Shown: positions 1,821-61,824, counted from the stretch's first letter. The stretch: 64,000 bases of DNA from an uncultured Acetobacteraceae bacterium (GCA_964236535.1 CAXSEF010000001.1:69818-133817), one strand, 5' to 3'. Numbers and translations: made by a program. Notes: generated by a model from the letters alone, not told the origin.

Positions 1821-1957
1821 GGCAAGCAAAGCAGGGCTGGGCTCTGCCCAGACCCGCCAAAGGCCTGAGGCCTCTGGAAACCCGTTTCTCAAGCATAGGG
1901 ATTCCAAAGGCTAGCCTTTGGCGGAGTCCAGAGGCGGAGCCTCTGGCCTTGCCTGCC
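1821..1957 (+). repeat. Stacked-hairpin intergenic repeat, full copy (modules A-B-C)
   Basis: Sequence is ggcaagcaaagcagggCTGGGCtctGCCCAGacccgccaaaggc ... CCAAAGGCtaGCCTTTGGcggagtCCAGAGGCggaGCCTCTGGccttgcctgcc. The termini are imperfect inverted repeats (ggcaagcaaagc / gccttgcctgcc). Confidence 0.8.
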
Positions 1958-1985
1958 GGCCGGTCCCGCCCAAGGCCCGTCGGTG

Positions 1986-2630
1986 CTACAGATCCAGTCG
2001 GGCCAGGAGCCCGGCGGTCATCGCGGCGCGGTCGGCGTTGGACATCCACGCACCGGTCAGATGGAGGGTGGCGAGTGCCGGCTGCCCGGCGATGTGGCCG
2101 GCGCGGAGCAGGGTGCGGCCGGCGGGGCTGGCGAGCACGGGCTGCGTGGGCCCGAAGCCGGCGAGGCTGTCGAAGCCGATGGCGACGATGTTGCGGGGAC
2201 GCATGGCGCGGACCATGCGCAGGACGCGCGCGGCGCAGAACTGCGCGATTTCGCGGCGCAGGGGGACGGGGACGGTGCGGCGCCAGGTGGCGAGGTCGGG
2301 CGCGCGCAGGAAGATCGCGTTGGTGCCGGTGCAGCCGGACAGCGCGGGGCCGAACATGCGGCGCATGTGGCGGGCCATCGGCCAGGGGGCGGTGGCGTAT
2401 TCGCAGGTCTGTGGCCAGGAGCCGCCGAGGTCGGCGCCGTGCTCGCGGTGCTGGCTGATCTCGGTGCCGCCGGGCTGGAGCCCGACGAACAGGATGGGGG
2501 GTTCGTCGAGCGGCGGGCCGTAGAGGATCTCGTAGCCGCGGGCCGCGGAACCGAGGGCGGGGGCAAGGCGGGCGTAGCGGCGCGCGGTCTCGGCGTAGAT
2601 GGCGCGGCAGGTGTGCGTGGGGTCGGGCAT
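1986..2630 (-). CDS. Hypothetical protein, possibly a uracil-DNA-glycosylase-like fold
   Basis: 214-aa ORF. PILFVGLQPGG resembles the UDG-superfamily motif A (GxxPG) and a C-terminal HLTGA resembles motif B. No other family recognised by eye. Confidence 0.5.
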   Translation of the reverse strand: MPDPTHTCRAIYAETARRYARLAPALGSAARGYEILYGPPLDEPPILFVGLQPGGTEISQHREHGADLGGSWPQTCEYATAPWPMARHMRRMFGPALSGCTGTNAIFLRAPDLATWRRTVPVPLRREIAQFCAARVLRMVRAMRPRNIVAIGFDSLAGFGPTQPVLASPAGRTLLRAGHIAGQPALATLHLTGAWMSNADRAAMTAGLLARLDL

Positions 2631-2877
2631 GGGCGGTGTGGCCGACGGTGCGTGCGGAGGGGCCGGACGCTGCGGGTCTGGCGTCCGGGAGGTTGGGGTC
2701 GGACGGCCGGGGCCGGGCGGCTTGTGCGTCGGAGGCAGGCTAGGCGTCGCAGCTGGGCGTGGAAAGCGCGCACGGGCCGCGTGACCTTTGGCGCGGCGGT
2801 CGGATGTTCATCGTGGATTCAGGTTTTGCGGCGATTGTCCATTCCGCGCCTAGGGACCAACAGCAAACGAGGCGGGG

Positions 2878-3843: not shown

Positions 3844-3871
3844 CGGCGGGGCGGCGCCGGAGTCGGCTTCG

Positions 3872-4096
3872 CGGCCGGGGCCGTTCCTGCTCGGCGAGGC
3901 GTTCTCGGCGGCGGACGTGCTGTGGGCGCTGCGCTGGGCTGGACGATGCAGTTCAAGGTGGTGTCCGGAGCGGCCGGAGCTCGTGGCCTGCGTGGCGCAG
4001 GTGGTAGCGCGACCGGGGTTGTGCGGCGCGGAAGAAGGCTGCGGCGCTGACGGGGCTGGCAAGGATTGCTGTCGGCGCGGCGCCGGGTGTGGTTGA
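3872..4096 (+). pseudogene. Possible remnant of a glutathione S-transferase C-terminal domain
   Basis: One frame reads RPGPFLLGEAFSAADVLWALRWAG....PERPELVACVAQVVARPG. This resembles the GST C-terminal helices (FLLGExFSxADi ... aw..rv.aRPa). No N-terminal thioredoxin-like half is present, and the upstream part of this frame overlaps the EAL gene. Confidence 0.3.
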
Positions 4097-4299
4097 CAGC
4101 CTTGACCGGGGCCGTCTCGGGCCGCTGCAACCTGCGCCGGACCGTCATGCCCGCAAGCCCGAACTTCATGCGACGTTGATTCCGGGCGGCTCGCCGTCGC
4201 AGGTCCTCGCCCTGGACGAACGGTTCGGCTCCGCCGCCCAGCACAGGCCGCTTGTCGCACTGGCCGCGCTGCGCTAATCCCCGCGCCTTGTTCCAGTCT

Positions 4300-5795: not shown

Positions 5796-5868
5796 CCACA
5801 AACTCAGTTGTGGCGGTCCAGGGCGGCTCGCCCTGGCGGAGTCCTGGGGCAGAGTCTCTGGCCTTGCC
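5796..5868 (+). repeat. Stacked-hairpin repeat, partial copy (C-type end)
   Basis: Sequence is CCACAAactcagTTGTGGcggtCCAGGGCggctcGCCCTGGcggagtcctggggcagagtctctggccttgcc. Confidence 0.65.
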
Positions 5869-5976
5869 GCCTTCTGCGGCCGTGCACTGGACGCAGGCCC
5901 TGCGTGGCGTAATCTGTGCAAGGTTCATGACGGCGGTCCCCGTTCCGGGTTCCCGCCTCTCTAGGGATGCAGACAC

Positions 5977-11234: not shown

Positions 11235-11531
11235 ATGAACAAGGCGGAGCTGGTCGACGCGGTGGCGGGAGCGGCCGAACTGCCGCGTACCAAGGCGGCC
11301 GAGGCGGTCGAGGCCGCACTGGCCGCGATCGAGGCGGCGCTGCAGCAGGGCAGCGAGGTGCGCCTGAGCGGCTTCGGCACCTTCATGCCGACCCGGCGCA
11401 AGGCCGCCAAGGGCCGCAACCCGCGCACCGGAGAGGTCATCGACCTGCCGGAGACCAGCTCGGTCCGCTTCAGGCCGGCGCGTATCTTCAAGCAGGTGGT
11501 CGCTCCCGCGGCTGCCGCTCCGGGCGGTTAG
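11235..11531 (+). CDS. hupB: DNA-binding protein HU
   Basis: 98 aa. Starts MNKAELVDAVA and contains GFGTF....RKAAKGRNPRTGEVIDLPETSSVRFRP. The TAG stop (11529-11531) lies inside the downstream tRNA-Val. Confidence 0.9.
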   Translation: MNKAELVDAVAGAAELPRTKAAEAVEAALAAIEAALQQGSEVRLSGFGTFMPTRRKAAKGRNPRTGEVIDLPETSSVRFRPARIFKQVVAPAAAAPGG

Positions 11532-11593
11532 CTCAGCGGTAGAGCGTCTCGTTTACACCGAGAGGGTCGGCGGTTCGATCCCGTCACCGCCCA
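11522..11593 (+). tRNA. tRNA-Val (anticodon TAC)
   Basis: Acceptor GGGCGGT/ACCGCCC. D-arm TAGCTCAGCGGTAGAGC. Anticodon stem TCTCG/CGAGA with loop TTTACAC. T-arm GGCGGTTCGATCCCGTC. No encoded CCA. Confidence 0.88.
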
Positions 11594-11605: not shown

Positions 11606-11761
11606 AAGCAACGCCAGGCTTTGCCCGGGCCGTCGAAGGCCCGCCGCTGGCGTAGGCTTTCGGAACCCTTCTTGGTGTTCTCTTCCTGCGGCCGGGGTGT
11701 CCGATGCGTGTGGGTCTGGGGCCTCAAGGGCCCAGCGGCGTCCAGGGGCAGAACCCCTGCC
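11606..11761 (+). repeat. Stacked-hairpin repeat, diverged copy filling the tRNA-Val/tRNA-Asp spacer
   Basis: Left part is aagcaacgccaggctttgcccggg. Right part is tggggcctcaagggcccagcggcgtccaggggcagaacccctgcc. Compare the copy at 61760-61815. Confidence 0.5.
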
Positions 11762-11779
11762 TATCCCGGCAACGCAAGC

Positions 11780-11818: not shown

Positions 11819-11895
<77 letters not shown>

Positions 11896-16143: not shown

Positions 16144-17468
16144 TGCTGAACGACCGCGACCGCATCTTCACCAACCTGTACGGCCTGCACGACTGGCACC
16201 TGGCGTCGGCGCGGAAACGCGGCGACTGGGACGGCACCGCCGCCATCCTCGCGCGCGGCCGCGATGCCATCGTCGACGAGATGAAGGCGTCCGGCCTGCG
16301 GGGTCGCGGCGGCGCCGGGTTCCCCACCGGCATGAAGTGGTCGTTCATGCCGAAGCAGTCCGACGGCCGCCCGCACTACCTCGTGGTCAACGCCGACGAG
16401 AGCGAGCCCGGCACCTGCAAGGACCGCGAGATCATGCGGCACGACCCGCAGAAGCTGGTCGAGGGCTGCCTGATCGCCTCGTTCGCGATGGGTGCGCACG
16501 CCTGCTACATCTACATCCGCGGCGAGTACTACAACGAGCACCTCAACCTGCAGGTCGCCGTCGACGAGGCGTACGCCTCCGGGCTGATCGGGCCGAACGC
16601 CTGCGGGTCGGGCTGGGATTTCGAGCTGTATCTGCACCGCGGCGCCGGCGCGTATATCTGTGGCGAGGAGACCGCGCTGCTGGAGAGCCTGGAGGGCAAG
16701 AAGGGCATGCCCCGGCTCAAGCCGCCGTTTCCCGCCGCCGTCGGCCTGTATGGCTGCCCGACCACCGTCAACAACGTCGAGACCATCGCCACCGCGCCCA
16801 CCATCCTGCGTCGCGGCGCCGCCTGGTTCTCCGGCTTCGGGCGGCCGAAGAACACCGGCACCAAGATCTTCTCGATCTCCGGGCATGTGAACAGGCCGTG
16901 CAACGTCGAGGAGGAGATGAGCATCCCGTTGCGCGAGCTCATCGACCGCCACTGCGGCGGAGTGCGCGGCGGCTGGGACAACCTGCTGGGCATCATCCCC
17001 GGCGGCTCGTCCACTCCGATCCTTGCCGCGGACGCCTGCGACGACGTGCTGATGGACTTCGACAGCCTGCGCGACGCCAAGAGCGCGCTGGGTACCGCCG
17101 CCGTCATCGTGCTCGACAAGTCGACCGACGTCATCAAGGCCATCGCCAACCTCGCGCATTTCTACAAGCACGAGACCTGCGGGCAGTGCACCCCGTGCCG
17201 CGAGGGCCTGGGGTGGATGATGCGCATCCTCGACCGCATGGTGGAGGGGCGCGCCGAGGTCGAGGAGATCGACATGCTCGACCAGGTCAGCCGGCAGATC
17301 GAGGGCCACACCATCTGCGCGCTGGCCGACGGCGCCGCGTGGCCGGTGCAGGGGCTGATCCGCAACTTCCGCCCGGTGATCGAGGAGCGTATCGCGGCGC
17401 GCAAGGCGCGGCAGGGGGGCGTCCGGGTCGCGCCGACGCCGGCGAACCTGCCGATGGCGGCGGAGTAG
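16143..17468 (+). CDS. nuoF: NADH-quinone oxidoreductase subunit F
   Basis: Starts [14 protein letters not shown]. Contains [37 protein letters not shown] and [12 protein letters not shown]. Confidence 0.95.
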
Positions 17469-17470
17469 GA

Positions 17471-17613
17471 AGCCAGGCCGGGCTCTGCCCGGACCCGCCA
17501 GGGCGCGCCGGCACACGTAGCGGCACCGCCCGAGGCGTCGTGCCGCAGGACTGAGATAGTGGTTTCCAAAGGCCTCGGGCCTTTGGTGGGTCCAGGGCAA
17601 AGCCCTGGCCTTT
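17471..17613 (+). repeat. Stacked-hairpin repeat between nuoF and nuoG
   Basis: Left part is agccaggCCGGGCtctGCCCGGacccgccaggg. Right part is tttCCAAAGGCctcgGGCCTTTGGtgggtCCAGGGCaaaGCCCTGGcc. It begins 2 nt after the nuoF TAG. Confidence 0.8.
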
Positions 17614-17632
17614 CTCCTGAGGGTCCAGACCA

Positions 17633-20765: not shown

Positions 20766-20965
20766 CAGGCAGGAAGGCCAGAGGCTCTGCCTCTGGACTC
20801 CGCTCAAGGCCAAGCCTTGAGAATCCTCATGAAAGAAGCTCGAAGCGCCAAGTTCCCGGGCGAGGCCTGAGAACAATGTCTATCTGGGTAAATGGTTTCC
20901 AAAGGCCTCCGGCCTTTGGCGGGTCTGGGCAGAGCCCACCCTTGCTTGCCTGCGGCTTGCTTGCC
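20766..20965 (-). repeat. Stacked-hairpin repeat (inverted orientation, with ~60-nt internal insert) between nuoH and nuoI
   Basis: It starts immediately after the nuoH TAG: caggcaggaaggCCAGAGGCtctGCCTCTGGactccgc. It ends tttCCAAAGGCctccGGCCTTTGGcgggtCTGGGCagaGCCCAcccttgcttgcctgc. Confidence 0.8.
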
Positions 20966-21502: not shown

Positions 21503-21532
21503 GATGACCCGCACGCCCGAGGACCCGCGCCG

Positions 21533-27712: not shown

Positions 27713-27953
27713 AGGCAGGCAGGCAAGAAAGGCCAGAGGCTCTGCCTCTGGACTCCGCTCAAGGCGAGGCCTTGAGAATCCATCTGGAAGGCGCCTCGGG
27801 GCACCTGCGACCAGACCATGCGGGACTTGGGAGCGCTTTGCGATCCTTCGGCCGCGTTGCGGGATCGCACCGACATGCGCCGGTCCCGGGGCGGCTCGCC
27901 CCTGGGGGGTCCCCGCTTCCAGGCCATGGGCAGCGCCCAGCCTGGCTTGCCTG
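27713..27953 (-). repeat. Stacked-hairpin repeat(s), composite or degenerate, downstream of nuoN
   Basis: Left part is aggcaggcaggcaagaaaggCCAGAGGCtctGCCTCTGGactccgctcaaggcgaggccttgagaatcc. Right part is gggcagcgcccagcctggcttgcctg. Confidence 0.65.
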
Positions 27954-33837: not shown

Positions 33838-34546
33838 CTTCGCACCCGGCCAGGCCCGCGCCGACACCGAAATCGCCCTCGCCCTGCGCGGGGTCACCCG
33901 GACCTACCGCAGCGAGGCCGGCCCGCTCGACGTCCTGCGCGGCGTCGACCTCGAACTGCGCGCCGGCGAGATCACCGCGCTCGTCGCCCCGTCAGGCACC
34001 GGCAAGTCCACCCTGCTGCACACCGCCGGCCTGCTCGAACGCCCGGACGCGGGGCACGTCCTCGTCGCCGGCCGCGACGCCGGCGCCCTCTCCGACCACG
34101 ACCGCACCCAGATCCGCAGCCGCGCCATCGGCTTCGTCTACCAGTTCCACCACCTGCTCGCCGAGTTCACCGCGCTGGAGAACATCGTGCTGCCGCAGAT
34201 GATCGCCGGCTGCCGCCGCCGCGAGGCCGAAGCCCGCGCCCACGGCCTGCTCGCCGCCTTCGGCCTTGCCGACCGCGCCCGCCACCTGCCCGGCAAGCTG
34301 TCCGGCGGCGAGCAGCAGCGCGTCGCCATCGCCCGCGCGCTCGCCAACGCGCCGCGTGTGCTCCTCGCCGACGAACCCACCGGCAACCTCGACGTCGCCA
34401 CCGCCGACCACGTGTTCGCCGAGCTCATGCACGCCGCCCGCGACCAGGGCACCGCCGCGCTGATCGCGACCCATAACACCGAGCTCGCCGCGCGCATGGA
34501 CCGCGTGGTCACCCTGCAGGACGGTGTGCTCGTGGAGCTGCGATAG
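33830..34546 (+). CDS. lolD: Lipoprotein-releasing ABC transporter ATP-binding protein
   Basis: Walker A is APSGTGKST, signature is [15 protein letters not shown], Walker B is [11 protein letters not shown]. It overlaps the permease gene by 8 nt. Confidence 0.92.
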
Positions 34547-34678
34547 CAGGCAAGGCTGGGCTCTGCCCAGACCCGCCAAAGGCCAGGGGCTTTTGGAAAC
34601 CTCTTCCTCAAGCACATGGATTCCAAAGGCTTGCCTTTGGCGGAGTGCAGAGGCAGAGCCTCTGGCCTTGCTTGCCTG
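34547..34678 (+). repeat. Stacked-hairpin repeat, full copy (A-B-C)
   Basis: It begins immediately after the lolD TAG: caggcaaggCTGGGCtctGCCCAGacccgccaaaggc ... CCAAAGGCttGCCTTTGGcggagtgCAGAGGCagaGCCTCTGgccttgcttgcctg. Confidence 0.85.
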
Positions 34679-34705
34679 AGCGGTCATGCTCAGGGCCTGT
34701 TGGTA

Positions 34706-35581
34706 TCAGACGCCCAGCGAAACCAGTGCCCGCTCAACACGTCCTCGCTCGGGCGTTGCCAGCGGCAGGATCGGCCTAGGGGGCTGCGCGTCGGTCAGGC
34801 CGAGAAGGTTGGCGGCCGCATAGGTCACACGCAGGCTGCTCAGCTCCTTGAACAGGGTCCAGAGCGGCTGAAGCGTGGCGTCGATCCGGCGCACGGCCTC
34901 GGCATCCCCGGCCTCGGCGGCGCGCATCAGCGCCAGCGCAGGGCCGGGCAGCAGGCCGCCAAGCACGCTGTACCAGGCGACGCCGCCCGCGAGCACGGCC
35001 CCCGCGGCGTTCCAGTCGCCGCTGTAGCCGATGGCGAAGCCGGCGGGCAGGCGCTGCCGCAGGGAATCGAGCTGCGCCACCACTTCGGAGCGCAGCGGCG
35101 CCGGGTTCTTGACGGCGACGACCCCCGGCAAGGTGCTCAATCGCACGATGAGGGAGTCGCTGAACGTGAAGTGGGTGGTGGCCGGATTGTTGTAGATGCA
35201 GAGCGGCAGATCGGTGGCTCCCGCGACGGCGGCGAAGTGCTGGTAGACCTCCTCGTCGCCGAGTGGGATGTAGGACACCGGCGCGAGCAGCAGCCCGTCC
35301 GCCCCGGCCGCCTGCGCGTCCCGTGCCAGGTCCTGTACGTCGCTGGTGCGAAGCGCGCCGACACCGACGATGATGGGGATGCGTCCGCCCAGGCCTCCCG
35401 CCGCTGCCTCGACCGCCCGCCGCCGCTCCCGCCGGCTCAGGTAGGCGTAGGTACCGGTGGAGCCGAGCAGGCCCACCGAATCCACCCCGGCGGCGTCGAG
35501 ACGCTGCAGCAGGGCGGCCAGGCCGGCGGTGTCAACGCGGCCCTGCTCGTCGGCCGGAGTGATGGAAGGCCGCGAGGCCAT
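34706..35581 (-). CDS. Dihydrodipicolinate synthase / N-acetylneuraminate lyase family protein
   Basis: 291 aa. Contains GVDSVGLLGSTGTYAYLSRRERRR, PIIVGVGALRT, GADGLLLAPVSY and IYNNP....F. Confidence 0.8.
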   Translation of the reverse strand: MASRPSITPADEQGRVDTAGLAALLQRLDAAGVDSVGLLGSTGTYAYLSRRERRRAVEAAAGGLGGRIPIIVGVGALRTSDVQDLARDAQAAGADGLLLAPVSYIPLGDEEVYQHFAAVAGATDLPLCIYNNPATTHFTFSDSLIVRLSTLPGVVAVKNPAPLRSEVVAQLDSLRQRLPAGFAIGYSGDWNAAGAVLAGGVAWYSVLGGLLPGPALALMRAAEAGDAEAVRRIDATLQPLWTLFKELSSLRVTYAAANLLGLTDAQPPRPILPLATPERGRVERALVSLGV

Positions 35582-35644
35582 GGAACAGCGGCATGCCGAC
35601 TTCCTTCGGCGGGGATCACAGCAGCCGCACCCCGGACGTGTGCC

Positions 35645-35695
35645 GGTCCAGGGCGGCTCGCCCTGGCGGGTCCGGGCAGAGCCCGGCCTTGCTGC
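35645..35695 (-). repeat. Stacked-hairpin repeat, half copy (A-type end) abutting the dadA stop
   Basis: Sequence is ggtCCAGGGCggctcGCCCTGGcgggtCCGGGCagaGCCCGGccttgctgc. It is directly followed by CTA, the complement of the dadA TAG. Confidence 0.75.
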
Positions 35696-37021
35696 CTACC
35701 GGTAGCGCGCCACCGCGAGGTCCTCGTGCTCGATGTTCGGCCGGCGGTCCGAGACCAGGTCGGCGGTAAGGCGGCCGGAGCCGCAGGCCATGGTCCAGCC
35801 CAGGGTGCCGTGGCCGGTGTTGAGGAACAGGTTGAGGTATCGGGTGGCGCCGACGATGGGGGTGCCGTCGGGAGTCATCGGGCGCAGGCCGGTCCAGAAC
35901 CTGGCATGGTTGAGGTCGCCGCCGTCGGGGAACAGGTCGCGCAGCGAGTGCTCCAGGGTGGCGCGGCGGGGGGCGCGGAGCCGGCGGCTGAAGCCTGCGA
36001 GTTCGGCGGTGCCGCCGACGCGGATGCGGTCGCCGAGGCGGGTGATGCCGACCTTGTAGGTCTCGTCCATGACGGTGGAGGCGGGGGCGGCGTCGGGGTT
36101 GGTGACCGGAAGGGTGAGGGAGTAGCCCTTCACCGGGTAGATCGGCAGCTCGATGCCCAGCGGCTTGAGCAGGAAGGGGGAGTAGCTGCCCAGCGCCAGG
36201 ACGTAGCGGTCGGCCTGGACGACTTCGTGCGCGGCGGCGGCGGCACGGCGCGCGGGGCGGCCGGAGATCGTGCCGCCGGCGGCGGGGACCGGGCCGGCGG
36301 GGGCGATGCGGACGCCGGTGATGCGTCCGGCCTCGTGGTCGAGCGCCTGGATCTCCACATCGTGGCGGAAGGTGACGCCGGCGGCGCTGGCGAGGCTGGC
36401 GAGGCGCTGGGTGAACTTGTGGGCGTCGCCGGTCTGGTCGCCGGGGAGGCGGAGGCCGCCGAGGACGCGGCCGGGCACGCGGGCGAGAGCGGGCTCGGCG
36501 CGGACGCAGCCGGCCTCGTCGAGCACCTCGTAGGCGACGCCGCCCTCGTCGAGGACGGCGGTGTCGTCACGGATGTGGTCGAGCTGCTTGCTGGTGCGGA
36601 ACAGCTGGAGCGTGCCCTGCTGGCGGGCGTCGTAGTCGATGCCGGTGCCGCTGCGCAGGTCGTCGAGGCAATCACGGCTGTATTCCGCGAGGCGGACCAT
36701 GCGGGCCTTGTTGACGTGGTAGGCGTCCTCGGTGCACTCGCGCAGCATGAGCGCGAGCCAGCGGTAGAGGGCGGGGTCGGTGCCCGGGAGCAGGACGAAG
36801 GGGCGGTGGCGCATCATCAGCCAGCGCAGCGCCTTGAGCGGGATGCCGGGCGCGGCCCAGGGGGCGGAGTAGCCGGGGGAGACCTGGCCGGCGTTGGCAT
36901 AGGTGGTCTCCATGCCGGGCTCGGCCTGGCGGTCGAGCACGGTGACCTGGTGGCCGGACTGGGCGAGGTACCAGGCGGTGGTGACGCCCACGACGCCGCT
37001 GCCGAGGACGGCGACCTTCAT
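35696..37021 (-). CDS. dadA: D-amino acid dehydrogenase (FAD-dependent)
   Basis: 441 aa. Starts [32 protein letters not shown] (Rossmann fold). Contains [22 protein letters not shown] and a C-terminal [14 protein letters not shown]. Confidence 0.88.
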
Positions 37022-39111: not shown

Positions 39112-39160
39112 GCTGGGGTTTCCTCGGCGGCGCGGCGAAGGTTAGCGTTGCGGCGGTGGC

Positions 39161-39230
39161 GAAGGCCAGGACAGGCAGGCGCATGAAGGAGTTTGCCCCG
39201 AACCCGCCAGGGCAGACCGCCCTGGATCGG
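39161..39230. repeat. Weak, degenerate stacked-hairpin repeat fragment
   Basis: Sequence is gaaggccaggacaggcaggc ... gccccgaacccgCCAGGGCagaccGCCCTGGatc. It shows only partial similarity to the family. Confidence 0.35.
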
Positions 39231-39325
39231 GATTTCTCGGGTTTGCGGCACATGGGCACCGCGTGCAGGCCGGGACAAGGGATCAGCCTCTGACGGGTGC
39301 AGGGGCCGATCCCTGAGAGTGCCTG

Positions 39326-40165: not shown

Positions 40166-40423
40166 GGGTCCTCTGGCTATCGATCGTCTCCTTGGTCGTT
40201 TCGATGTCGCGGCATCGGGCGAGCCGCGGGGCAGTCTTGGGCTCTCCGTCGGGCCCGGGCAAGCATTCTCGTCGGCAGACGTTGACAAAGCATGACATGG
40301 GGGTGCAGGCGGCCGGCGTTCAAGCCTGAAGCGGCGGGCGGCACCGGGCAGAGGCCGGTCAGGACGCGAGTATGGGCTCTCCCATAGCACTATGCCGACG
40401 GCTTAAACAGGCCGTCCGAGCCG

Positions 40424-40549
40424 TGGGTGGGCTCCGCGCAGACCCGCCAGAGCCGGAATTGCTGAGGAACGCCCTGCCTTGAACATAAGGATTCTCGAGG
40501 CGTGCCTTGAGCGGAGTCCAGAGGCGGCGCTTCTGGACTTGCCTTGCAG
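40424..40549 (+). repeat. Stacked-hairpin repeat, diverged full copy
   Basis: Left part is gtgggctccgcgcagacccgccagagcc. Right part is ggattctcgaggcgtgccttgagcggagtCCAGAggcggcgctTCTGGacttgccttgc. Confidence 0.65.
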
Positions 40550-44775: not shown

Positions 44776-44973
44776 AAGCCTGTTCGGGACTCCACTCTGC
44801 CGGTCATCTGACGCGCTTGCGCCGTGCTCCGATGCTCAAGGCCCTCCTGGGGGCCGCTCCGCTCCGATGCTCGCACAAGCGCGCCAGCTGACTCGGCAGA
44901 GCGAGTTCGCGGAGAAGCTTTCAGGCACTCGATCGGCCCTGGACGGGCTCAAGGGTATTCACGGGCATGGAGG

Positions 44974-45033
44974 CCGGTCCGGGGGCGGCTCGCCTCTGGC
45001 GGGTCTGGGCAGAGCCCAGCCTTGGCTTTGCTG
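44974..45033 (-). repeat. Stacked-hairpin repeat, half copy (A-type end) abutting a stop codon
   Basis: Sequence is ccggtccgggggcggctcgcctctggcgggtCTGGGCagaGCCCAGccttggctttgctg. It is followed directly by CTA, the complement of the flavoprotein gene's TAG. Confidence 0.75.
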
Positions 45034-46610: not shown

Positions 46611-46675
46611 CAGGCAAAGAAAGGCGAGGCCAGGGCTCTGCCCTGGACCTGCTGGGGCCTGAGGCCCCAGACCCA
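46611..46675 (+). repeat. Stacked-hairpin repeat, short variant
   Basis: Sequence is caggcaaagaaaggcgaggCCAGGGCtctGCCCTGGacctgCTGGGGCCtgaGGCCCCAGaccc. Confidence 0.7.
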
Positions 46676-46800
46676 AACATGAAAGAGGCGGCACACTGGT
46701 GGGCTTTGTGCCGCTCGGCTTTTCGCATGCCGGTCCAGAAGTGCTGCCCCTGACGGGTCCGCGTCTTGGGCGAGGGGGCAATGCCCTTGCCTTGACTGCT

Positions 46801-49628: not shown

Positions 49629-49768
49629 TGCGGCGATGTTCCCGGATGCACGACGGAACCGGGCGCCCCGGCGAGCGGGGCTGCGGGTGCCGCATGCCGT
49701 CGGCGGACGCAACGTTCGTACCAGGGCTTGCCAGGGACTGCACGCCACAAGCACTGGGGCTGCACGCC

Positions 49769-49868
49769 GCAAGCAAGGCTGGGCTTTGCCCAGACCCACC
49801 AGAGGCCGCGGGCCTCTGGACACCATCTGGTCAGGGGCTGTGGCTGCACGTCTCCTGGCCTTTGCTGC
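49769..49868 (+). repeat. Stacked-hairpin repeat, partial copy (A-type start)
   Basis: Sequence is gcaagcaaggCTGGGCtttGCCCAGacccaCCAGAGGCCgcgGGCCTCTGGacacc ... ctcctggcctttgctgc. Confidence 0.7.
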
Positions 49869-50530: not shown

Positions 50531-50596
50531 CCTTGAGGGTGCGGGTTGGGGGGCTCAGCCCCAGCGGAATACAGAGGCAGAGCCTCTGGCCTTGCC
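50531..50596 (+). repeat. Stacked-hairpin repeat, half copy (C-type end)
   Basis: Sequence is ccttgagggtgcgggttgGGGGCTcaGCCCCagcggaataCAGAGGCagaGCCTCTGgccttgcc. Confidence 0.75.
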
Positions 50597-50636
50597 TTGA
50601 CCTTCCCTCGCCCGCCGCCGCCGCCATATCCGGGGG

Positions 50637-51818: not shown

Positions 51819-53788
51819 ATGCAGCGGTTCTAGTGAAGAACGGAATAGGGCGAGGTCTTTCTAGGTCGTTAAGGGCTTGGTCAAGGACGGGTTGGTGGAA
51901 AACTTACGTAGGCTTGGCCGACAAATAAACGGCATACAGAGCGCCGGAAGCGGATAATCGTCGTTCACTTTGCATTGTAGAAGGTTGTTGGCTGGCGGGT
52001 TGCTTCGGCCGAGCTGTGTGATAACAAATCAAAGTTCCAAAGCCAGTCAAGATGGAAGGCGAGCCAGAACGATTTATAAGACAAGGTTTGGCGGATTGGT
52101 GCGGTGCTGCAACGAATGAGCCTGTGGAACCGGCGCTGTTAGATATAGCCAGCTAAGGAAGCTAAGGAATGCCGAAAAAGATCTGGAAAGTTGGTGAGGT
52201 CTTTGGCATCGGCCGAGATTTGCCAACTAATTATGTCGAGCGGTTTGGAATAGATGACAAACTTATTAATAATTTAACTCGCGATCAGCATCTTGTAATT
52301 TACGGAAGCTCAAAGCAAGGCAAGACTTGCCTTAGAAAACATTGCTTGCAAGACGTGGATTATATCGTAGTTTCTTGTTTAAATAATATGGATTTACGTC
52401 AACTGCACTCCGTAATTTTGAAAAGTGCTGGCTATGTGGTGCAAGAGTCATCGACTAGAACAATTGACGGCAAAGCAAAAGTAGAAGCCAAGTTTGGCGT
52501 AAAATTTGGCATTCCGGGCATTGCTAAGGCAACATTAGGAACAGGCGCTGAGGTTGGAGCCGGTGTCACAGATGAGAGCATTACTAAACATCTTGAGCTA
52601 GATCCCAGCGATGCCAATGAAATTATTGGGGCGTTGCAAGAAATAAAGTTTACAAGATATATTGTGCTTGAAGATTTTCATTATCTTCCATATGAGACGC
52701 AGCAAGACTTTGCATTTGCATTGAAAGTATTCCACGAGAATTCTAAGATAACTTTTATAATAGTAGCAGTTTGGCGTGAAGAAAATCGATTAATTCTATT
52801 TAATGGGGATCTAACTGGTCGGGTTATTCCGATAGACGCAGACGCATGGGATGACACGCAGCTCAACAAAGTTATGTCTGATGGCGAACATTTGCTTAAC
52901 ATTCAGCTTCCCTCCCAATTCAAGTCTGAAGTAATTAAGGGCTGCTCTGAAAGCGTTTACATAGTTCAAGAAGTGTGTCACAGAGCATGCACGGAAAGTG
53001 GTTTGCACGAGACCGCAAGTAACTTTAGAAATATAATACCGACTAGAGCCCCATTAGATTACATTCAAGAGATAGTTCGAGAGCAAAGTGGCAGATATAA
53101 GGTATTTTTGCAGAACTTCTCGTTTGGCTTTCAGACCACTGATTTAGAAATGTATAAATGGATACTTTTTCCTATTATAAAGTCTAACGTTGATCTTCTT
53201 GAGAAGGGTTTGAGTTATAACTACATTAAATCTTTTATTGAAAGTAAACACCCGGAAGGTAACAGACTTAAGCCCGGAAATTTGACTCAGGCACTTCAGC
53301 TTCTGAGTAAGCTGCAAATCGCAAAAAACTTTAAGCCGTTTATCCTGGATTATGACAGCGCAAATCTCTTGCTATCTATTGTTGATAAAGGATTCTTAAT
53401 ATGGCTGAGTGGACAGGATCGCTCTGCTTTATTAGAGTTGATTGATCTGCCTGTTAGCTAATTTGTCAGTATTCTGGAGAATAGTTTTAGAGTTTTCCTA
53501 CTCTTGATTGATAAGACCTATAATAGGTGAGAGAACACAAGGATTCTAACTTAGACAGCGTGCGGAAAACGGGTGATTGCGTCACCTCGTCATTGGGCTA
53601 CGGCGGCGTTCACGGTGGTCCGTTGCGCCACTGTATACCAAACTCTGCTGGCTTATGCCCATGTACGGGAAGCCCCGAAACAAATTTTCCCGCACATGCA
53701 GTTTGAAACGGAACAAGGCCGGCGTAACTGAGGCTTTCGCCCAACGGCACAATGTTGGCGCTGTGCCGGAGGGCTTTTGTTACGCGGG
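51819..53788. other. AT-rich genomic islet (putative horizontally acquired DNA) with a single cargo gene
   Basis: Hand counts of 60-nt lines give about 70% G+C in flanking genes, about 40-58% in 51841-52140, and about 32-45% in 52169-53461. The switch occurs right at the stop codon of the DUF482 gene and at the repeat/thrS 3' end. No integrase, transposase, tRNA or flanking direct repeat was seen. Confidence 0.8.
52169..53461 (+). CDS. Orphan P-loop NTPase (ATPase_2 / ORC-Cdc6-like AAA core), function unknown
   Basis: It is the only long ORF in the islet (430 aa). An AAGGA SD lies 9 nt upstream. Walker A is GSSKQGKT (aa 46-53, nt 52304-52327). Walker B-like is YIVLEDF (aa 164-170, nt 52658-52678) followed by HYLP, as in the archaeal-ATPase-type DEFQYL motif. 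A hydrophobic strand ITFIIVAVW follows. The C-terminal ~190 aa are helical with no recognisable nuclease or effector motif. Confidence 0.8.
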   Translation: MPKKIWKVGEVFGIGRDLPTNYVERFGIDDKLINNLTRDQHLVIYGSSKQGKTCLRKHCLQDVDYIVVSCLNNMDLRQLHSVILKSAGYVVQESSTRTIDGKAKVEAKFGVKFGIPGIAKATLGTGAEVGAGVTDESITKHLELDPSDANEIIGALQEIKFTRYIVLEDFHYLPYETQQDFAFALKVFHENSKITFIIVAVWREENRLILFNGDLTGRVIPIDADAWDDTQLNKVMSDGEHLLNIQLPSQFKSEVIKGCSESVYIVQEVCHRACTESGLHETASNFRNIIPTRAPLDYIQEIVREQSGRYKVFLQNFSFGFQTTDLEMYKWILFPIIKSNVDLLEKGLSYNYIKSFIESKHPEGNRLKPGNLTQALQLLSKLQIAKNFKPFILDYDSANLLLSIVDKGFLIWLSGQDRSALLELIDLPVS

Positions 53789-53843
53789 TTTGGGGGCTCA
53801 GCCCCCAGCGGAGTCCAGAGGCAGAGCCTCTGGCCTTGCTGCC
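53789..53843 (+). repeat. Stacked-hairpin repeat, half copy (C-type end), overlapping the thrS 3' end
   Basis: Sequence is tttGGGGGCTcaGCCCCCagcggagtCCAGAGGCagaGCCTCTGGccttgctgcc. The thrS stop (complement of 53798-53800) lies in the loop of the first hairpin. Confidence 0.8.
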
Positions 53844-55774
53844 GCTTGACCTGACCTGAGATCCGGCGGCGTCGCCTCGGCCGCGAGCAGGGCTACGGCG
53901 TCGGCGAGGTTGAGGACCTCCTGGGCCGGGCTGCCGAGGCGGCGCAGCGCGACGGTGCCTTCCTCGGCCTCGCGGCGGCCGACGACGAGCAGCAGCGGCA
54001 CGTGGGCGAGGCTGTGCTCGCGGACCTTGGCGTTGATCTTCTCGTTGCGCAGGTCGGTGCGGACGGAGAGGCCGGCGGCGCGGAGCTGGCCGGCGACGAT
54101 CTCGGCGTAGGGGTTGGCGTCGGAGACGATGGTGGCGACGACGGCCTGGACCGGGGCAAGCCAGAGCGGGAAGCGGCCGGCGTACTGCTCGATGAGGATG
54201 CCGAGGAAGCGCTCGAAGCTGCCGAGGATGGCGCGGTGGAGCATGACGGGGCGGACCTTGGCGCCGTCCTCGGCGATGTAGGCGGCGTCGAGGCGCGAGG
54301 GCAGGAAGAAGTCGACCTGCAGGGTGCCGCACTGCCAGTCGCGGCCGATGGCGTCGCGCAGGACGAACTCGAGCTTGGGGCCGTAGAAGGCGCCTTCGCC
54401 GGGGTTGACCTCGTAGTCCACGCCGGCGATGCGGCAAGCCTTGATGAGGGCGGCTTCGGCGCGGTCCCAGGTGGCGTCGTCGCCGGTGCGGGTGGTGGGG
54501 CGGTCGGCGAACTTGATGCGGAACTCGGGGAAGCCGAAGTCGGCGTAGACCGAGCGCAGCAGGGCCACGAAGCGGGCGGTCTCCTCGGCGACCTGGGCCT
54601 CGGTGCAGAAGATGTGGGCGTCGTCCTGGGTGAAGGCGCGGACGCGCATGATGCCGTGCAGGGCGCCGGAGGGTTCGTAGCGGTGGCAGGCGCCGAACTC
54701 GGCCATGCGCAGGGGCAGCTCGCGGTAGCTGCGCAGGCCGTGGTTGAAGATCTGGACGTGGCAGGGGCAGTTCATCGGCTTGAGGGCGAGGTCCTTGTCC
54801 TCGTCCTCGACGCGGGCGACGAACATGTGCTCGCGGTACTTTTCCCAGTGGCCGGAGCGTTCCCACAGGTTGCGGTCGACGAGCTGGGGGGTGCGGACCT
54901 CGGCGTAGCCGTTGGTGTCGAGGCGGCGGCGCATGTAGGACTCGCAGGTGCGATAGAGGCGCCAGCCCTTCTCGTGCCAGAAGATGCTGCCGGTGGCTTC
55001 CTCCTGGATGTGGAACAGGTCCATCTCGCGGCCGAGGCGGCGGTGGTCGCGGCGCTCGGCTTCCTCCAGGCGGTGCAGGTAGGCGTCGAGCTCCGATCTG
55101 TCGCGCCAGGCGGTGCCGTAGATGCGGCTGAGCATGGCGTTGCGGTGGTCGCCACGCCAGTACGCGCCGGCGACCTTCATCAGCTTGAAGGCGGGGCCGA
55201 TGTCGGCGGTGGCGCGCATGTGCGGGCCGCGGCAGAGGTCGATCCAGTCGCCCTGGCTGTAGAGGGTGATGACCTGGTCGATCCCGAGGTCGTGGATCAG
55301 CTCGGCCTTGTAGGACTCGCCGCGGGCCTCGAAGAAGGCGATGGCATCGTCGCGGTCGCGGACCTCGCGGGCGAAGGGGCTGTTGCGCGCGATGATCTCG
55401 CGCATGCGGGCCTCGATGGCGGGGAAGTCCTCGGTGGTGAACGGGGTGTCGCGGGCGAAGTCGTAGTAGAACCCGTCCTCGATCAAGGGGCCGATGGTGA
55501 CCTGGGTGCCGGGGTAGAGCGACTGCACGGCCTCGGCGAGCACGTGGGCGGTGTCGTGGCGGATCAGCTCCAGGGCGTCGGGGTCGCGGCGGGTGACGAA
55601 GCGGACCTGGGCGTCGTGCTCGATCGGGCGGGCGAGATCCTGGAGCGCACCGTCGACGCGCATCGCGAGTGCCGCCTTGGCGAGGCCGGGGCCGATGTCG
55701 GCGGCGAGCGCAGTGCCGGTCACCGGGGCCTCGAAGCGGCGGATCGAGCCGTCGGGCAGGGTGATTGCGGGCAT
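53798..55774 (-). CDS. thrS: Threonine--tRNA ligase
   Basis: 658 aa. Starts [14 protein letters not shown] (TGS domain). Contains HVLAEAV, class II motifs FRHEPSG-like ([11 protein letters not shown]) and [10 protein letters not shown]. Confidence 0.95.
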
Positions 55775-58204: not shown

Positions 58205-58714
58205 GTGAGCAAGCGCCGCCCTGTCGATCCGCGCCAGGCCGACCTGTTCGAGGCTCCGGCCCCGAGCGGGCGGGATGACGACGAGCCGGCGAGCCCGAGC
58301 GAAGGCGAGGGTCCTGCCCATGACCCGCAAGGGGCCGGGATGCCGGCCGACCCCGTGTTGGCAAGGCCGCGCCCCGCACGGGTCGCTGCGCCCGCCGAGC
58401 CGAGGGCCGGGGATGAGATCGGGCGAGTGCAGTTCCGCCGCGTCGAGCCTGCGGGCTACCGCGCGACCGACCGGCCGGATGCGTTCCTGTACAGCGTCGT
58501 CACGCGCGACGTGGCCGAACGGCTGCTGTGCCGTGGCATGCCTCGTCAGGATCTGCCGCTTCTGGTCGAACGCGACGCCGTGGCAGGACTTCTGGCAGCG
58601 GTCGGGGCCGAGCTCGGCTGGAGCGACGAGCAGCCCGGCTGCATTGTCGTGCTGCGGGTTCGCCGCGGCGAGGTCGGCGGCGATGTGCCCCAGGCGCTGC
58701 GGCGGGCTGGGTGA
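58205..58714 (+). CDS. Hypothetical protein (disordered N-terminal half, ~90-aa folded C-terminal half)
   Basis: GTG 58205 is the first plausible start (MSKRRPVDPRQADLFE...). Its stop overlaps the next gene's GTG (GTGA). No family recognised. Confidence 0.45.
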   Translation: MSKRRPVDPRQADLFEAPAPSGRDDDEPASPSEGEGPAHDPQGAGMPADPVLARPRPARVAAPAEPRAGDEIGRVQFRRVEPAGYRATDRPDAFLYSVVTRDVAERLLCRGMPRQDLPLLVERDAVAGLLAAVGAELGWSDEQPGCIVVLRVRRGEVGGDVPQALRRAG

Positions 58715-59499
58715 GCGGCGTGGAGATGCTCGACCGCGGCGACGGCGTGCGGCTCGCGCAGATCGCGCAGGCGGGGCGTTCGCCGACCGTGGTGTTCCTG
58801 CCCGGCTTCCGCAGCGACATGGCAGACGAGAAGGCGACGGCGTTGGCGGCGTTCTGCACATCGCGCGGCCAGGCGATGCTGCGACTCGATTTGTCCGGGC
58901 AGGGGCGCAGCGGGGGGCGGTTCGAGGACGGCACCATCGGGCGCTGGGCGGCCGACGCACTGGTGCTGCTGGACCGTGTCGCGGGGCCGCTGCTGCTGGT
59001 GGGCTCGTCGATGGGCGGGTGGATCGCGCTGCTGCTGGCGCTGGCGCGACCGGAGCGGGTCGTGGGGCTGGTCGGCGTCGCCGCCGCACCGGACTTCACC
59101 GAGGAGCTGATGTGGGGCGCGATGCTTCCGGTCGAGCAGGAGGCGCTGCTGCGTCACGGGGTGCTGATGGTGCCGAACGCCTACGGCCCGGCATTCCCGC
59201 TGACGCTGGCGCTGATCGAGGACGGGCGGCGGCATCTGCTGCTGGGCGGCCCGATCGCGCTGCGCTGCCCGGTGCGGCTGCTGCATGGGCAGGCGGATAC
59301 GGAGGTGCCGTGGCAGACGGCGCTGCGGATCGCCGGGCGGCTGGAAGGCGACGACGTGCGGGTGACGCTGGTCAAGGATGCGACGCACCGGTTCTCGCGG
59401 GCGCCGGACCTGGTAGTGGTGTGCTCGGCGGTGGGGGAGCTGCTGGACAAAGGCGGGGGAAAGCCAGGCTGGGCTCCGCCAGGACCCGCTGGGGCCTGA
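58711..59499 (+). CDS. Alpha/beta-fold hydrolase (start at GTG 58711 or ATG 58726)
   Basis: Contains VVFLPGFRSDM, the nucleophile elbow GSSMGG, and LLHGQADTEVP...THRF. The last 13 codons lie inside a stacked-hairpin repeat. Confidence 0.8.
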   Translation: MSGVEMLDRGDGVRLAQIAQAGRSPTVVFLPGFRSDMADEKATALAAFCTSRGQAMLRLDLSGQGRSGGRFEDGTIGRWAADALVLLDRVAGPLLLVGSSMGGWIALLLALARPERVVGLVGVAAAPDFTEELMWGAMLPVEQEALLRHGVLMVPNAYGPAFPLTLALIEDGRRHLLLGGPIALRCPVRLLHGQADTEVPWQTALRIAGRLEGDDVRVTLVKDATHRFSRAPDLVVVCSAVGELLDKGGGKPGWAPPGPAGA

Positions 59500-59612
59500 G
59501 GCCCCAGACCCACACATGTCTGGGGGCAAGCCCGGCTTGTAGTGCCGCTGGCTCGAAGTCGTGGTTTCCGAAGGGCTCTGCCTTCTGGCGGGTCCGGGTA
59601 GAGACCGGCTGC
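59461..59612. repeat. Stacked-hairpin repeat, full-length variant with A-type modules at both ends
   Basis: Left part is aagccaggctgggctccgccaggacccgCTGGGGCCtgaGGCCCCAGaccc. Right part is tttccgaagggctctgccttctggcgggtccgggtagagaccggctgc. It is followed directly by CTA, the complement of the SDR gene's TAG. Confidence 0.75.
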
Positions 59613-60485
59613 CTACTGGGCCTCCGCCGCGAGGATTGCCGCAAGCCCGTCGCGGTAGGTCGGGTAGCGCCAGCGCAGCCCGAGGGCGCGCTGGGTCGCC
59701 TCGCACGCGACCTTGCGGTCCTCGGCCCAGAACGACAGCGCCATCGGGCTCATCGTGCCCATGGCGGCTGCGAAATCCAGCTCGGGCGGCGGGTCAATGC
59801 CGAGCAGGCGGGCGGCCTCGGCGATGTAGTCGGCGCTCTCGGCGGGTGCGTCGTCGGACAGGTTGAGCACGCGCGGGCGGGCGACGTCCTGGGCCATGGC
59901 AGCCAGCACGGCCGCAGCGATGTCGTCGCGGTGGATGCGGCCGAACATGTGTCCGGTCTTGCGCACGCGGCGCGCCCGGCCGGCGCGCAGCTCGGCGAAC
60001 GGAGAGCGGCCCGGGCCGTAGATGCCGGCGAGGCGGAACAGGTCGAGCCGGTCGCCGGTGACGCCACGCCAGGCGGCCTCGGCCTCGACGCGGCGGCAGC
60101 CGCGGGCGGAACGCGGCGCGACCGGGGTGGTCTCGTCGACCCAGGCGCCGCCGCGGTCGCCATAGACGCCCGTGGTGGACAGGTAGCCGACCCAGGCGAG
60201 GCGCGGGGCGGCGGCGATGGCGGCAGCGTGGCGGGCGAGGACCGGGTCGCCGGGCTGGCCGGGGTCGGCCTCGGTGGGCGCGGCGGTGGCGAGGATGTGG
60301 GTGGCGGCGGGCAGGATCTCGTCCGCGGCGTCGAAGGGGATGACGTCGATGCCGGGCGGGGTCGCCTGGGGCGCGGCAGGGCCACGATGGGTGCCGGTGA
60401 CCGTCCAGCCGGCGACGGCGGCGCGGCGGGCGACCTCGGTGCCGCAGTAGCCCAGGCCGAAGACGAGAAGATGACGCGCGCTCAT
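59613..60485 (-). CDS. NAD(P)-binding SDR / epimerase-family protein
   Basis: 290 aa. Starts LLVFGLGYCGTEVARR (a Rossmann GxGxxG variant). Contains YLSTTGVYGD and RLAGIYGPGR. Confidence 0.75.
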   Translation of the reverse strand: MSARHLLVFGLGYCGTEVARRAAVAGWTVTGTHRGPAAPQATPPGIDVIPFDAADEILPAATHILATAAPTEADPGQPGDPVLARHAAAIAAAPRLAWVGYLSTTGVYGDRGGAWVDETTPVAPRSARGCRRVEAEAAWRGVTGDRLDLFRLAGIYGPGRSPFAELRAGRARRVRKTGHMFGRIHRDDIAAAVLAAMAQDVARPRVLNLSDDAPAESADYIAEAARLLGIDPPPELDFAAAMGTMSPMALSFWAEDRKVACEATQRALGLRWRYPTYRDGLAAILAAEAQ

Positions 60486-60526
60486 GGTGGTTTGCCGCTC
60501 CCCGGGCTGGCTTGTAGGCTGGGCTC

Positions 60527-61666
60527 ATGAGTACACGCACGGCACTCTTTGGCGGGGCCGGCCTCCTGCTGGCCAGCCTTGCCGTCGCCTGGATGGCGGG
60601 GCCCGGAAGTCCCAGGCGTGCGGCTCCTGCGCTGGAGGCCGCGGCAATGGGCGCTCCAGCGGGCGTCCTTGCGGATCCTGCCGTTACGGGACAGCCGGGT
60701 CGGTCCGGCGGGGCTGCGGCGTCCGGCCTGGCGGATGGCGCCGCTGCGCAGGTGGCGTCGGCGCACTCCGCTGCAAGCGCCGGCACCGCCGCCGGTGCGA
60801 ACGGCGGAGCGAGTGCCGGGCCGGGCGAGGCACCCTCCCCTGTCGCTGCCGCGGTGCCGGCGCCCGGCGAGGGGCCGGGGGTTGCGGGGCCCGATGGCGT
60901 GCCCGCAGCCGAGGCGCCGGACCACGCGGCGACGGAGGGCGATGCCGGAGAGGCGCTGCCGCTGCCGCCGGTGTCGCCTCGGCTGGGCGAGGGCCGCGAC
61001 TACGAGCACTGCATGGACATGATGGCGAGCGATCCGTCCGGCGCGCTGGCCTTCGCCGAGGCGTGGGTGGCGACCGGCGGCGGCGACAGCGCACAGCACT
61101 GTCAGGCGCTGGCGCAGGTCGAGCTGGGCGACCCAGGGGTCGGCGCCGAGCTGCTCGATCGGGTGGCGCAGACCAGCGCCGCGCCGGCGCTGTCGCGTGC
61201 GGCGGTGTTCGGGCAGGCGGACCAGGCGTGGATGATGGCCGGCGACGCAGGGCGGGCCTATGCTTCGGCGACGCTGGCCCTGACGCTGTCGCCCGACGAC
61301 CCGGACCTGCTGATCGACCGTGCGGTGGCCGCAGCAACGCTGGGGCGGTTCCGCGAGGTCACCGACGACCTCGACCGGGCGCTCGAGCTGGAGCCGCGCC
61401 GGGTGGACGCGCTGGTGTATCGCGCGGCGGCGCAGCGGCACCTGGAGCACCTCGATCTCGCCTCGGACGACCTCGCGCGAGCCTTCTCGCTCGACCCGGA
61501 CGACCCGGACGCGCTGCTGGAGCGCGGGATCGACCGGCAGCGCGCCGGCGACCTGACAGGCGCACGGGCCGACTGGGAGCGGGCGACGGCGCTCGCCCCG
61601 GACACGCCGACCGGGGATCTGGCGCAGCAGGACCTGTCGCTGCTGGAGGCGGGGCCGCCGCGGTAG
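60527..61666 (+). CDS. Membrane-anchored or secreted tetratricopeptide-repeat protein
   Basis: 379 aa. It has an N-terminal hydrophobic segment LFGGAGLLLASLAVAW, an Ala/Gly/Pro-rich linker, then TPR-like helices (AYASATLALTLSPDDPDLLIDRA..., ALELEPRRVDALVYRA). Confidence 0.75.
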   Translation: MSTRTALFGGAGLLLASLAVAWMAGPGSPRRAAPALEAAAMGAPAGVLADPAVTGQPGRSGGAAASGLADGAAAQVASAHSAASAGTAAGANGGASAGPGEAPSPVAAAVPAPGEGPGVAGPDGVPAAEAPDHAATEGDAGEALPLPPVSPRLGEGRDYEHCMDMMASDPSGALAFAEAWVATGGGDSAQHCQALAQVELGDPGVGAELLDRVAQTSAAPALSRAAVFGQADQAWMMAGDAGRAYASATLALTLSPDDPDLLIDRAVAAATLGRFREVTDDLDRALELEPRRVDALVYRAAAQRHLEHLDLASDDLARAFSLDPDDPDALLERGIDRQRAGDLTGARADWERATALAPDTPTGDLAQQDLSLLEAGPPR

Positions 61667-61824
61667 GAAGGCAGGGCCTGGGCTTTGCCCAGACCCGCCA
61701 GGGGCGAGCCGCCCCTCGACCGGCCCATGGAAGGCAGAGGGCGGGGCAGTGTGCTTTTCATGTGTGGGGCTGGGGCTCAGGCCCAGCGGAGTCCAGAGGC
61801 GGCGCCTCTGGACTGCCTTGCTCC
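61667..61824 (+). repeat. Stacked-hairpin repeat, full copy
   Basis: It begins immediately after the TAG of the TPR gene: gaaggcagggcCTGGGCtttGCCCAGacccgccagggg. It ends ggGGCTcagGCCCagcggagtCCAGAGGCggcGCCTCTGGactgccttgctcc. Confidence 0.8.

Follow-up and report, generated by a model that had tools for sequence, protein, structure and literature searches.

The stretch of DNA analysed here (hereafter the window) comprises 64 kb (C1:69818-133817) of the draft genome of an uncultured Acetobacteraceae bacterium, an assembly of 3.86 Mb in 227 contigs with approximately 70% G+C and 98.8% completeness, whose DNA was found almost entirely in one lichen metagenome. In addition to genes of a nuo operon, thrS, tRNA genes and genes of the DHDPS and DAO families, the window contains a repeat, which was confirmed to represent a real family of palindromic DNA, ~60 to 200 bases in length, located in the gaps between genes and present in about 1,000 copies in the genome. 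A full-model search of the window for single units, using a covariance model (61 positions, 16 base pairs; units reported at E ≤ 0.01), revealed 22-23 repeat units at 17 intergenic loci, namely six clear doublets, a further doublet in which one arm is decayed (40417-40547), nine single units and a weak candidate. A first-pass annotation of the window had proposed about 17 copies, in agreement with the 17 loci found, and all 14 copies that it listed were recovered, displaced by ~15 nt at most; its list lacked two clear units (27722-27782 and 11710-11771) as well as the weak candidate at 39160-39231.

The basic unit is ~60 nt long and consists of, in this order, a variable hairpin (hairpin A), the core GCGG(A/G)GTC, a second hairpin (hairpin B) and the tail CCTTGC(C/T)TGCC. 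Hairpin A is a variable cassette, encountered for example as TTCCAAAGGC-n3-GCCTTTGG, TCTCAAGGC..GCCTTGAGA, CCAGGGCGG..CGCCCTGG or TGGGGGC..GCCCCCA. Units fall into two main types, T1 with the core GCGGAGTC and the hairpin B CCAGAGGC-AGA-GCCTCTGG, and T2 with the core GCGGGTC and the hairpin B C(T/C)GGGC-AGA-GCCC(A/G)G. The commonest doublet is a near-palindrome of 123 nt with a conserved spacer centred on CTTAAG: GCAAGGCTGGGCTCTGCCCAGACCCGCCAAAGGCCTGAGGCCTTTGGAAACCCGTTCCTTAAGCATAGGGATTCCAAAGGCTCGGCCTTTGGCGGAGTCCAGAGGCAGAGCCTCTGGCCTTGC. Around a quarter of the T1 tails are extended by CCTG(A/G)CCGGTCACGCTCAAGGCCNGTTGGTA, the T2 tails carry a homologous extension, and in the longest form ~40 additional bases of inverted ends give a total of >200 bp. 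The first-pass annotation had described three modules in full and half copies; the module order is indeed constant and both forms exist, and the structure is better described as two inverted arms (hairpin A, GCGG(A/G)GTC, hairpin B, CCTTGC tail), with the half copy being the basic unit and the full copy a head-to-head doublet of the types T1 and T2. The copies in the window are:

1826-1988: doublet whose T2 arm (1826-1883, -) and T1 arm (1898-1957, +) are separated by a conserved spacer, 32.6 and 79.3 bits; the outer T1 extension reaches ~1988, ending at the CTA (TAG) stop of a minus-strand open reading frame (ORF; 1986-2630).
5812-5872: single unit (+), 62.3 bits, E 1.4e-16; hairpin A cassette CCAGGGCGGCTCGCCCTGG.
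11710-11771: single diverged unit (+), 35 bits, E 2e-8; flanked by tRNA genes at 11522-11593 and 11819-11892.
17467-17619: doublet, units 17467-17518 (-) and 17560-17619 (+), filling the nuoF-nuoG junction; the nuoF TAG stop (17466-17468) abuts its tail, and the nuoG ATG lies at 17633.
20767-20950: doublet with long spacer, T1 20767-20827 (-) and T2 20893-20950 (+), 79.4 and 34.5 bits; nuoH-nuoI junction.
27722-27782: single T1 unit (-), 79.9 bits, E 8e-22; 22 nt past the nuoN stop, 89% identical to 20771-20835 over 65 nt.
34545-34708 including extension: canonical 123-nt doublet, T2 34545-34602 (-) and T1 34617-34676 (+); the T1 extension on the outside terminates at TCA (TGA), the stop of a minus-strand DHDPS-family gene at 34706.
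35642-35697: single T2-type unit (+), 43.7 bits; the tail abuts the TAG stop of a minus-strand DAO-family gene (35696-37021).
39160-39231: weak candidate, degenerate unit (-), 18.2 bits, E 0.002 only.
40417-40547: doublet consisting of a left arm that is decayed (40417-40472) and an intact right arm of T1 type (40488-40547, +; 59.2 bits); given as a full copy at 40424 in the first pass, it is a doublet whose left arm is degenerate (61% identical to the reference).
44973-45030: single T2-type unit (+), 24.5 bits, E 3e-5; the tail abuts the TAG stop of a minus-strand gene starting at 45034.
46619-46676: single unit (-), 43.6 bits; hairpin A cassette CTGGGGCCTGAGGCCCCAG, with a very weak possible partner at 46729-46800 (E 0.58).
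49768-49825: single T2-type unit (-), 31.7 bits, E 2e-7.
50541-50600: single T1-type unit (+), 52.7 bits; hairpin A cassette GGGGCTCAGCCCC.
53784-53844: single T1 unit (+), 79 bits; thrS (minus-strand ORF, 53798-55774) has its final codons and its stop inside this unit.
59458-59617: doublet with diverged arms, 59458-59513 (-) at 36 bits and 59562-59617 (+) at 16.2 bits (E 0.0085).
61666-61822: doublet with long spacer, 61666-61724 (-) and 61764-61822 (+), 20.8 and 51.1 bits.

Across the whole genome, iterated nhmmer searches returned 1,045 matches, corresponding to 1,042 non-overlapping units at 760 loci, and the repeat DNA covers 74 kb (1.9% of the genome). The same search of the reversed, non-complemented genome, in which both composition and palindromes are kept, gave no matches. 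Within the window, the terminal 11-mer GCAGGCAAGGC occurs 14 times with at most one mismatch, compared to 3.6 expected occurrences, and none of 100 shuffles reached this number, while the exact 32-mer GCGGAGTCCAGAGGCAGAGCCTCTGGCCTTGC is found 159 times in the genome. In three lichen metagenomes, the source and two others, Logan contigs end at repeats, and the word depth there increases ~100-fold; the family is thus no artefact of binning or assembly. In the genome itself, a unit is located no more than 100 nt away from 54 of the 454 contig ends.

Neighbouring units are placed tails-outward in 263 cases, tails-inward in one and in tandem in 18, and pairs of T1 and T2 (104) outnumber same-type pairs (22). 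The 35 canonical doublets share a median pairwise identity of 87.5%, and ~490 units in the genome are single. As single strands, doublets are predicted to fold into either four stacked hairpins or one long hairpin, with fold z scores of -3.2 to -4.9 (the window copy at 34541-34682 folds with -42.6 kcal/mol, z -4.9). Among 24 distinct T1 units, 94.5% of the stem cells were paired compared to 86.5% in shuffles, seven of the eight hairpin A pairs were altered on both sides, i.e. by compensatory changes, and only 19-53% pairing was seen in controls in which the partner was slid by 1-3 columns. The first-pass description of one dispersed family with inverted termini, copies in both orientations, swapped hairpin cassettes and a density like that of repetitive extragenic palindromic (REP) sequences and bacterial interspersed mosaic elements (BIMEs) is borne out by this fixed architecture and by the compensatory stem changes. 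Rather than sharing generic palindromes without a common module order, or being restricted to the window, the copies have a shared order, and the family is found genome-wide and family-wide.

Using the covariance model, the unit was detected in 75 of 121 sampled Acetobacteraceae genera, complete genomes included, with the family assigned by record titles and the unit counts per genome being at-least values for many carriers. A set of 200 other genomes of the class, which doubles as a specificity control, contained a single weak case. In another genus (g75) the 32-mer is 100% identical, and the partner arm there keeps the plan of hairpin, GACCCCG and hairpin with stems that are different but still paired. 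The repeat family has apparently not been described before: its motif strings gave no match in the searchable literature, no real match to it was found in plasmid and phage collections, and in Rfam only tRNAs passed the gathering score in the window, the best match on an element being a chance microRNA (21.8 bits compared to a 93-bit threshold). Related contigs with the same repeat are titled as uncultured Acetobacteraceae or Rhodospirillales metagenome-assembled genomes (MAGs). Some MAGs titled “Janthinobacterium lividum” (L006-L014 and others; JBPBQS..., JBPBQX...) also carry the repeat and are syntenic with the genome investigated here at 75-88% identity, and the organism name on these records looks wrong.

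To compare orthologous positions, 92 contig pieces from related species, 75-90% identical in the flanking genes, were aligned to the genome. Of 144 syntenic gaps, 48 had the repeat only in the relative, 23 only in the genome studied here, 21 in both and 52 in neither; since the relatives' pieces had been chosen for carrying the repeat, only the 23 cases are unbiased. In one example, a relative has a doublet of 146 nt where the window has 14 nt (21507-21520), just after nuoI in the nuo operon. Where both species carry the repeat, its type, number or position often differs. No repeat-linked indels were seen between the near-duplicate contigs C14 and C21. This contig pair, along with C101/C127 and C167/C178, is 90-95% identical over 3 to >25 kb, and the bin seems to hold either two related strains or a large duplicated replicon.

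The relation of the repeats to genes was assessed with a home-made GC3-based gene caller, whose rough calls (2,509 genes) cover only 70% of the genome; 6% of the units lie mostly inside genes called in this way. Of the convergent gaps, 46% contain units, compared to 18-21% of the co-directional (tandem) and 17% of the divergent ones. Neither doublets (19 vs 21) nor single units (80 vs 66, p 0.28) favoured one orientation relative to transcription, and single units with the tail upstream lie at a median of 7.5 nt from the upstream stop. Copies adjoin or overlap gene ends, sometimes supply the stop codon, and are tolerated inside operons: in the window, copies of the repeat are found at the nuoF/nuoG junction, at the nuoH/nuoI junction and after nuoN. 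The hairpins are not followed by a T run, as they would be in intrinsic (rho-independent) terminators; in the consensus, one strand instead continues with CCTTGC or GCGGAGTC and the other with ACYCCGCC. As copies are located inside the nuo operon and none has a T run, the repeats are unlikely to terminate transcription efficiently in either orientation.

Within the tail, CCTG/CTTG motifs recur, differing by one transition from CTA, the complement of TAG, and reading frames entering the tail would thus tend to end there. TAG accounts for 18 of the 36 stops located no more than 10 nt from the tail anchor, compared to a genome baseline of 26.8% (p 0.0026), and stops at 11-25 nt show no excess (10 of 55). 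In the window, seven stops that are flush with repeat tails (between 17466 and 61668) are TAG. A general rule that stops at repeats are always TAG was rejected, the genome-wide excess being limited to the stops within 10 nt. Two reading frames end inside units, thrS (minus strand, 53798-55774) in the unit at 53784-53844 and the ORF 58711-59499 in the unit at 59458-59513, which indicates that their last codons and stops are repeat-derived. The recurrent peptides that the first-pass annotation regarded as fake follow from the sequence itself, as GGC TGG GCT CTG CCC AGA CCC GCC AAA GGC translates to GWALPRPAKG. Next to thrS, between it and a FemAB-like gene, lies an islet (51819-53788) with 46% G+C in the otherwise 70% G+C genome; it contains one ORF of 430 aa (52169-53461, +) with no Pfam match, and is absent from two other lichen metagenomes that contain its neighbours.

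Taken together, the repeats form a large, structured, family-specific and intergenic family with doublets and with turnover between species, and no gene for a REP-associated tyrosine transposase (RAYT) accompanies it. We consider it probable that this is a non-coding, non-autonomous family of the kind represented by REPs, BIMEs and REPINs (REP doublets forming hairpins), specific to the Acetobacteraceae. The copied entity would most likely be the head-to-head doublet of T2 and T1, sometimes with the ~40 nt of extra inverted ends, and intergenic copies appear to be gained and lost on the time scale of species divergence. Per-site differences amounted to 0.09 for stems, 0.36 for loops and 0.29 for the central spacer, making loops and spacer 3-4 times more variable than stems; cores and tails were even more constant than stems, a result that is partly circular as these were used as anchors to select copies. 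Because stems and core are constant while loops and spacer drift, and because the 32-mer is unchanged in other genera, a conserved trans-acting partner encoded by these bacteria probably recognises the hairpin-core-hairpin motif. The partner could be either an unrecognised kind of transposase or a factor of the host that binds DNA or RNA and through which the copies become useful in place.

Several points weigh against a family of mobile REP/BIME/REPIN-like elements. No insertion event was caught in the comparison of species, where, at 75-90% identity, no exact empty site, terminus or target duplication can be defined, and the presence/absence differences could have arisen by loss as well as by gain. 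Nor did any protein emerge as a candidate partner. The doublet consensus and the per-site variation were both derived from copies picked by their cores and tails, the stems not being among the anchors. Only two of 595 doublet pairs are ≥97% identical, giving no sign of a very recent burst and favouring constraint in place, and variation concentrated in the loops fits selection for a host function in place at least as well as selection for mobility.

An alternative explanation is that the repeats are fixed host-function elements, no longer or only rarely mobile, whose hairpin modules are kept by selection at gene ends. The possible roles include protection of mRNA 3' ends against exonucleases, different decay rates for parts of an operon, ribosome stalling near stops, and binding of a nucleoid protein or gyrase as reported for E. 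coli REPs and BIMEs. The within-genome conservation of stems over loops and spacer, the compensatory stem changes, the consensus shared identically across genera and the scarcity of near-identical full-length pairs would all be expected, as would the enrichment at convergent gene ends, the proximity of tails to stops and the copies at nuoF/G, nuoH/I and after nuoN. The lack of orientation bias speaks against it, however, as does the occupation of 17% of divergent (promoter) gaps. In addition, species differ greatly in whether a copy is present at an orthologous site, which is unexpected for sites that particular genes need; together with the unbiased orientation, this argues against a gene-specific or strand-specific RNA role. 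We regard this explanation as rather unlikely, and any positive role, such as the protection of mRNA 3' ends, is hypothetical.

Less probable again is that the repeat is a classical MITE (miniature inverted-repeat transposable element), i.e. an internally deleted DDE insertion sequence, perhaps with an IS5/IS1031-type parent duplicating TNA, mobilised in trans via its terminal inverted repeats. IS1031 of Acetobacter xylinum duplicates TNA. The doublets do have terminal inverted repeats and fall within the ~100-400 bp size range of MITEs, and the long form adds ~40 nt of homologous inverted ends. The three bases after the end of the long form are T-N-A in 29% of cases compared to 2% in the background, and TCA flanks one clean two-ended copy at either end; however, matching triplets were found in only two of 12 two-ended candidates, most of which have loosely defined ends, so that a TNA target duplication is suggestive but not reproducible in two-ended copies. 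The ~490 single units and the vertical persistence throughout the family would also be unusual for a MITE.

The search for a parent insertion sequence, exhaustive within the draft genome, yielded two families with identifiable terminal inverted repeats, both with ends unrelated to those of the repeat. One, an IS5-type element with four copies, ends in GACCGTGTTGCAYGGA and was rejected as a parent. The other, an IS1595-family element encoding a zinc-ribbon plus DDE transposase, is present at C32:~186-1830 and C57:~60-2410 and has terminal inverted repeats ending in GTAGTTGCCAAACCCAC; with its own ends, and being inserted into the repeat, it was likewise rejected. Both of its copies lie inside the central spacer of a repeat doublet; that on C57 is flanked by an exact 8-bp duplication (TTTGGAAA), and that on C32 has TTTGGAAA at one end and TTTGAAAA at the opposite one. 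The repeat appears to be a target of this element, much as REP and BIME elements are for some insertion sequences. Its transposase is the sole exception among the few genes lying between tails-outward units, which are otherwise housekeeping genes. IS110 was also rejected as a mobiliser: 13 of the 23 carriers and also 7 of the 20 non-carriers have it, and three complete carrier genomes lack it. The MITE-like architecture noted in the first pass accordingly holds for the inverted termini, but there is neither a reproducible target-site duplication nor a parent insertion sequence with the same ends, and membership of the MITEs is unproven.

The first-pass annotation had further suggested a cognate RAYT/IS200-like transposase. 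No PF01797 (Y1/RAYT) protein was found in the genome, in six genomes of the same genus or in 18 further genomes of the family, nor in 23 of 27 high-copy carriers, which include all five complete genomes, while control genomes were positive in the same search. When Acetobacteraceae RAYT-like proteins were used as tblastn queries against the genome, nothing better than E 0.04 was obtained. A RAYT/IS200 partner was rejected on the basis of these searches, and the partner, if any, is not a Y1 transposase of this kind. Weak Y1/RAYT-like genes encoding 194-307 aa occur in the remaining four high-copy carriers (L097-L100; genomes G065, G073, G131 and G056), and only that of G131 has a repeat unit within ~300 bp. 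The proteins L097, L098 and L100 start with a common ...YRRN-(L/R)-(I/V)-PG-(A/G)-TYFF motif. That the repeats are ordinary REPINs whose RAYT was missed, the MAG being incomplete or the gene too divergent, would agree with the architecture of inverted doublets and many decayed singles and with the genes in these four carriers, but is largely refuted and hardly credible given the 98.8% completeness of the genome, the negative searches of its relatives and of the complete carriers, and the absence of a GTAG or CGTC tag at the hairpin foot.

The preferred assignment to the REP/BIME/REPIN kind rests on build and behaviour. In common with the REP/REPIN-RAYT systems of Pseudomonas and Enterobacteria (PMC3116915, PMC3733652), the family has hairpin units that are short, GC-rich and extragenic and number in the hundreds, inverted pairing into a longer hairpin-forming doublet that looks like the copied entity, many singles resembling decayed doublets, enrichment after genes and a conserved linear motif beside a hairpin. 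It differs in that there is no RAYT/Y1 gene in the genome or the genus; that the T1, T2 and doublet consensus sequences carry neither a GTAG nor a CGTC tag, having instead a conserved GCGG(A/G)GTC between two hairpins; that each arm has two hairpins and the arms are systematically of different types (T1 and T2); and that the lineage is limited to one alphaproteobacterial family. As they lack both the GTAG/CGTC tag and a RAYT gene, which are defining features, the repeats are not members of the REP-RAYT group.

The E. coli BIMEs, built from Y and Z units with fixed linkers, offer a further parallel as two-type mosaics of alternating orientation with a conserved linker, found at gene ends and inside operons, although this analogy is one of build only: there is no sequence relation, and the doublet described here is nearly one 123-nt palindrome. 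Binding by IHF, DNA gyrase or Pol I is a further trait of BIMEs. IS1397 inserts into E. coli BIMEs, and similarly both IS1595-type copies here are located in the spacer of the repeat itself. By description only, the family also resembles the Rhizobium-specific intergenic mosaic elements (RIMEs), which are intergenic mosaics of 100-200 bp with inverted ends in Alphaproteobacteria; unlike MITEs and RIMEs, it has no demonstrated target duplication and no parent insertion sequence. High-copy palindromic families lacking a RAYT have been reported earlier, such as the CGTC-tagged REPs, the Rickettsia palindromic repeats among them, for which no dedicated transposase was found (PMC3733652). The repeats described here share these traits, but have a different tag and sequence, and only ~6% of the units lie inside called genes. 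The family is therefore a new one of a known kind.

For the Acetobacteraceae, which are dominant in lichen and moss metagenomes, the repeat has practical consequences. It makes up ~2% of these genomes, breaks short-read assemblies, creates spurious ORFs and supplies the last codons and stops of real genes such as thrS, and a model of the repeat would improve the annotation and binning of Acetobacteraceae MAGs. REPIN-like populations that are high-copy and homogeneous are regarded as dependent on a RAYT. One tentative possibility, which we put forward with considerable doubt, is that REPIN-like replicators persist vertically across the family without a RAYT, served by an unrecognised, single-copy and family-specific enzyme acting on the hairpin-GCGGRGTC-hairpin motif; if true, this enzyme would represent another, independent example of a “repeat-keeper” system that has been domesticated, the second of its kind. 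For finding the partner, a phyletic contrast is available in the 75 genera that carry the repeat and the 46 that do not, and a highly conserved repeat that lacks a RAYT and is confined to one family presents a testable case for either another partner enzyme or host selection alone.

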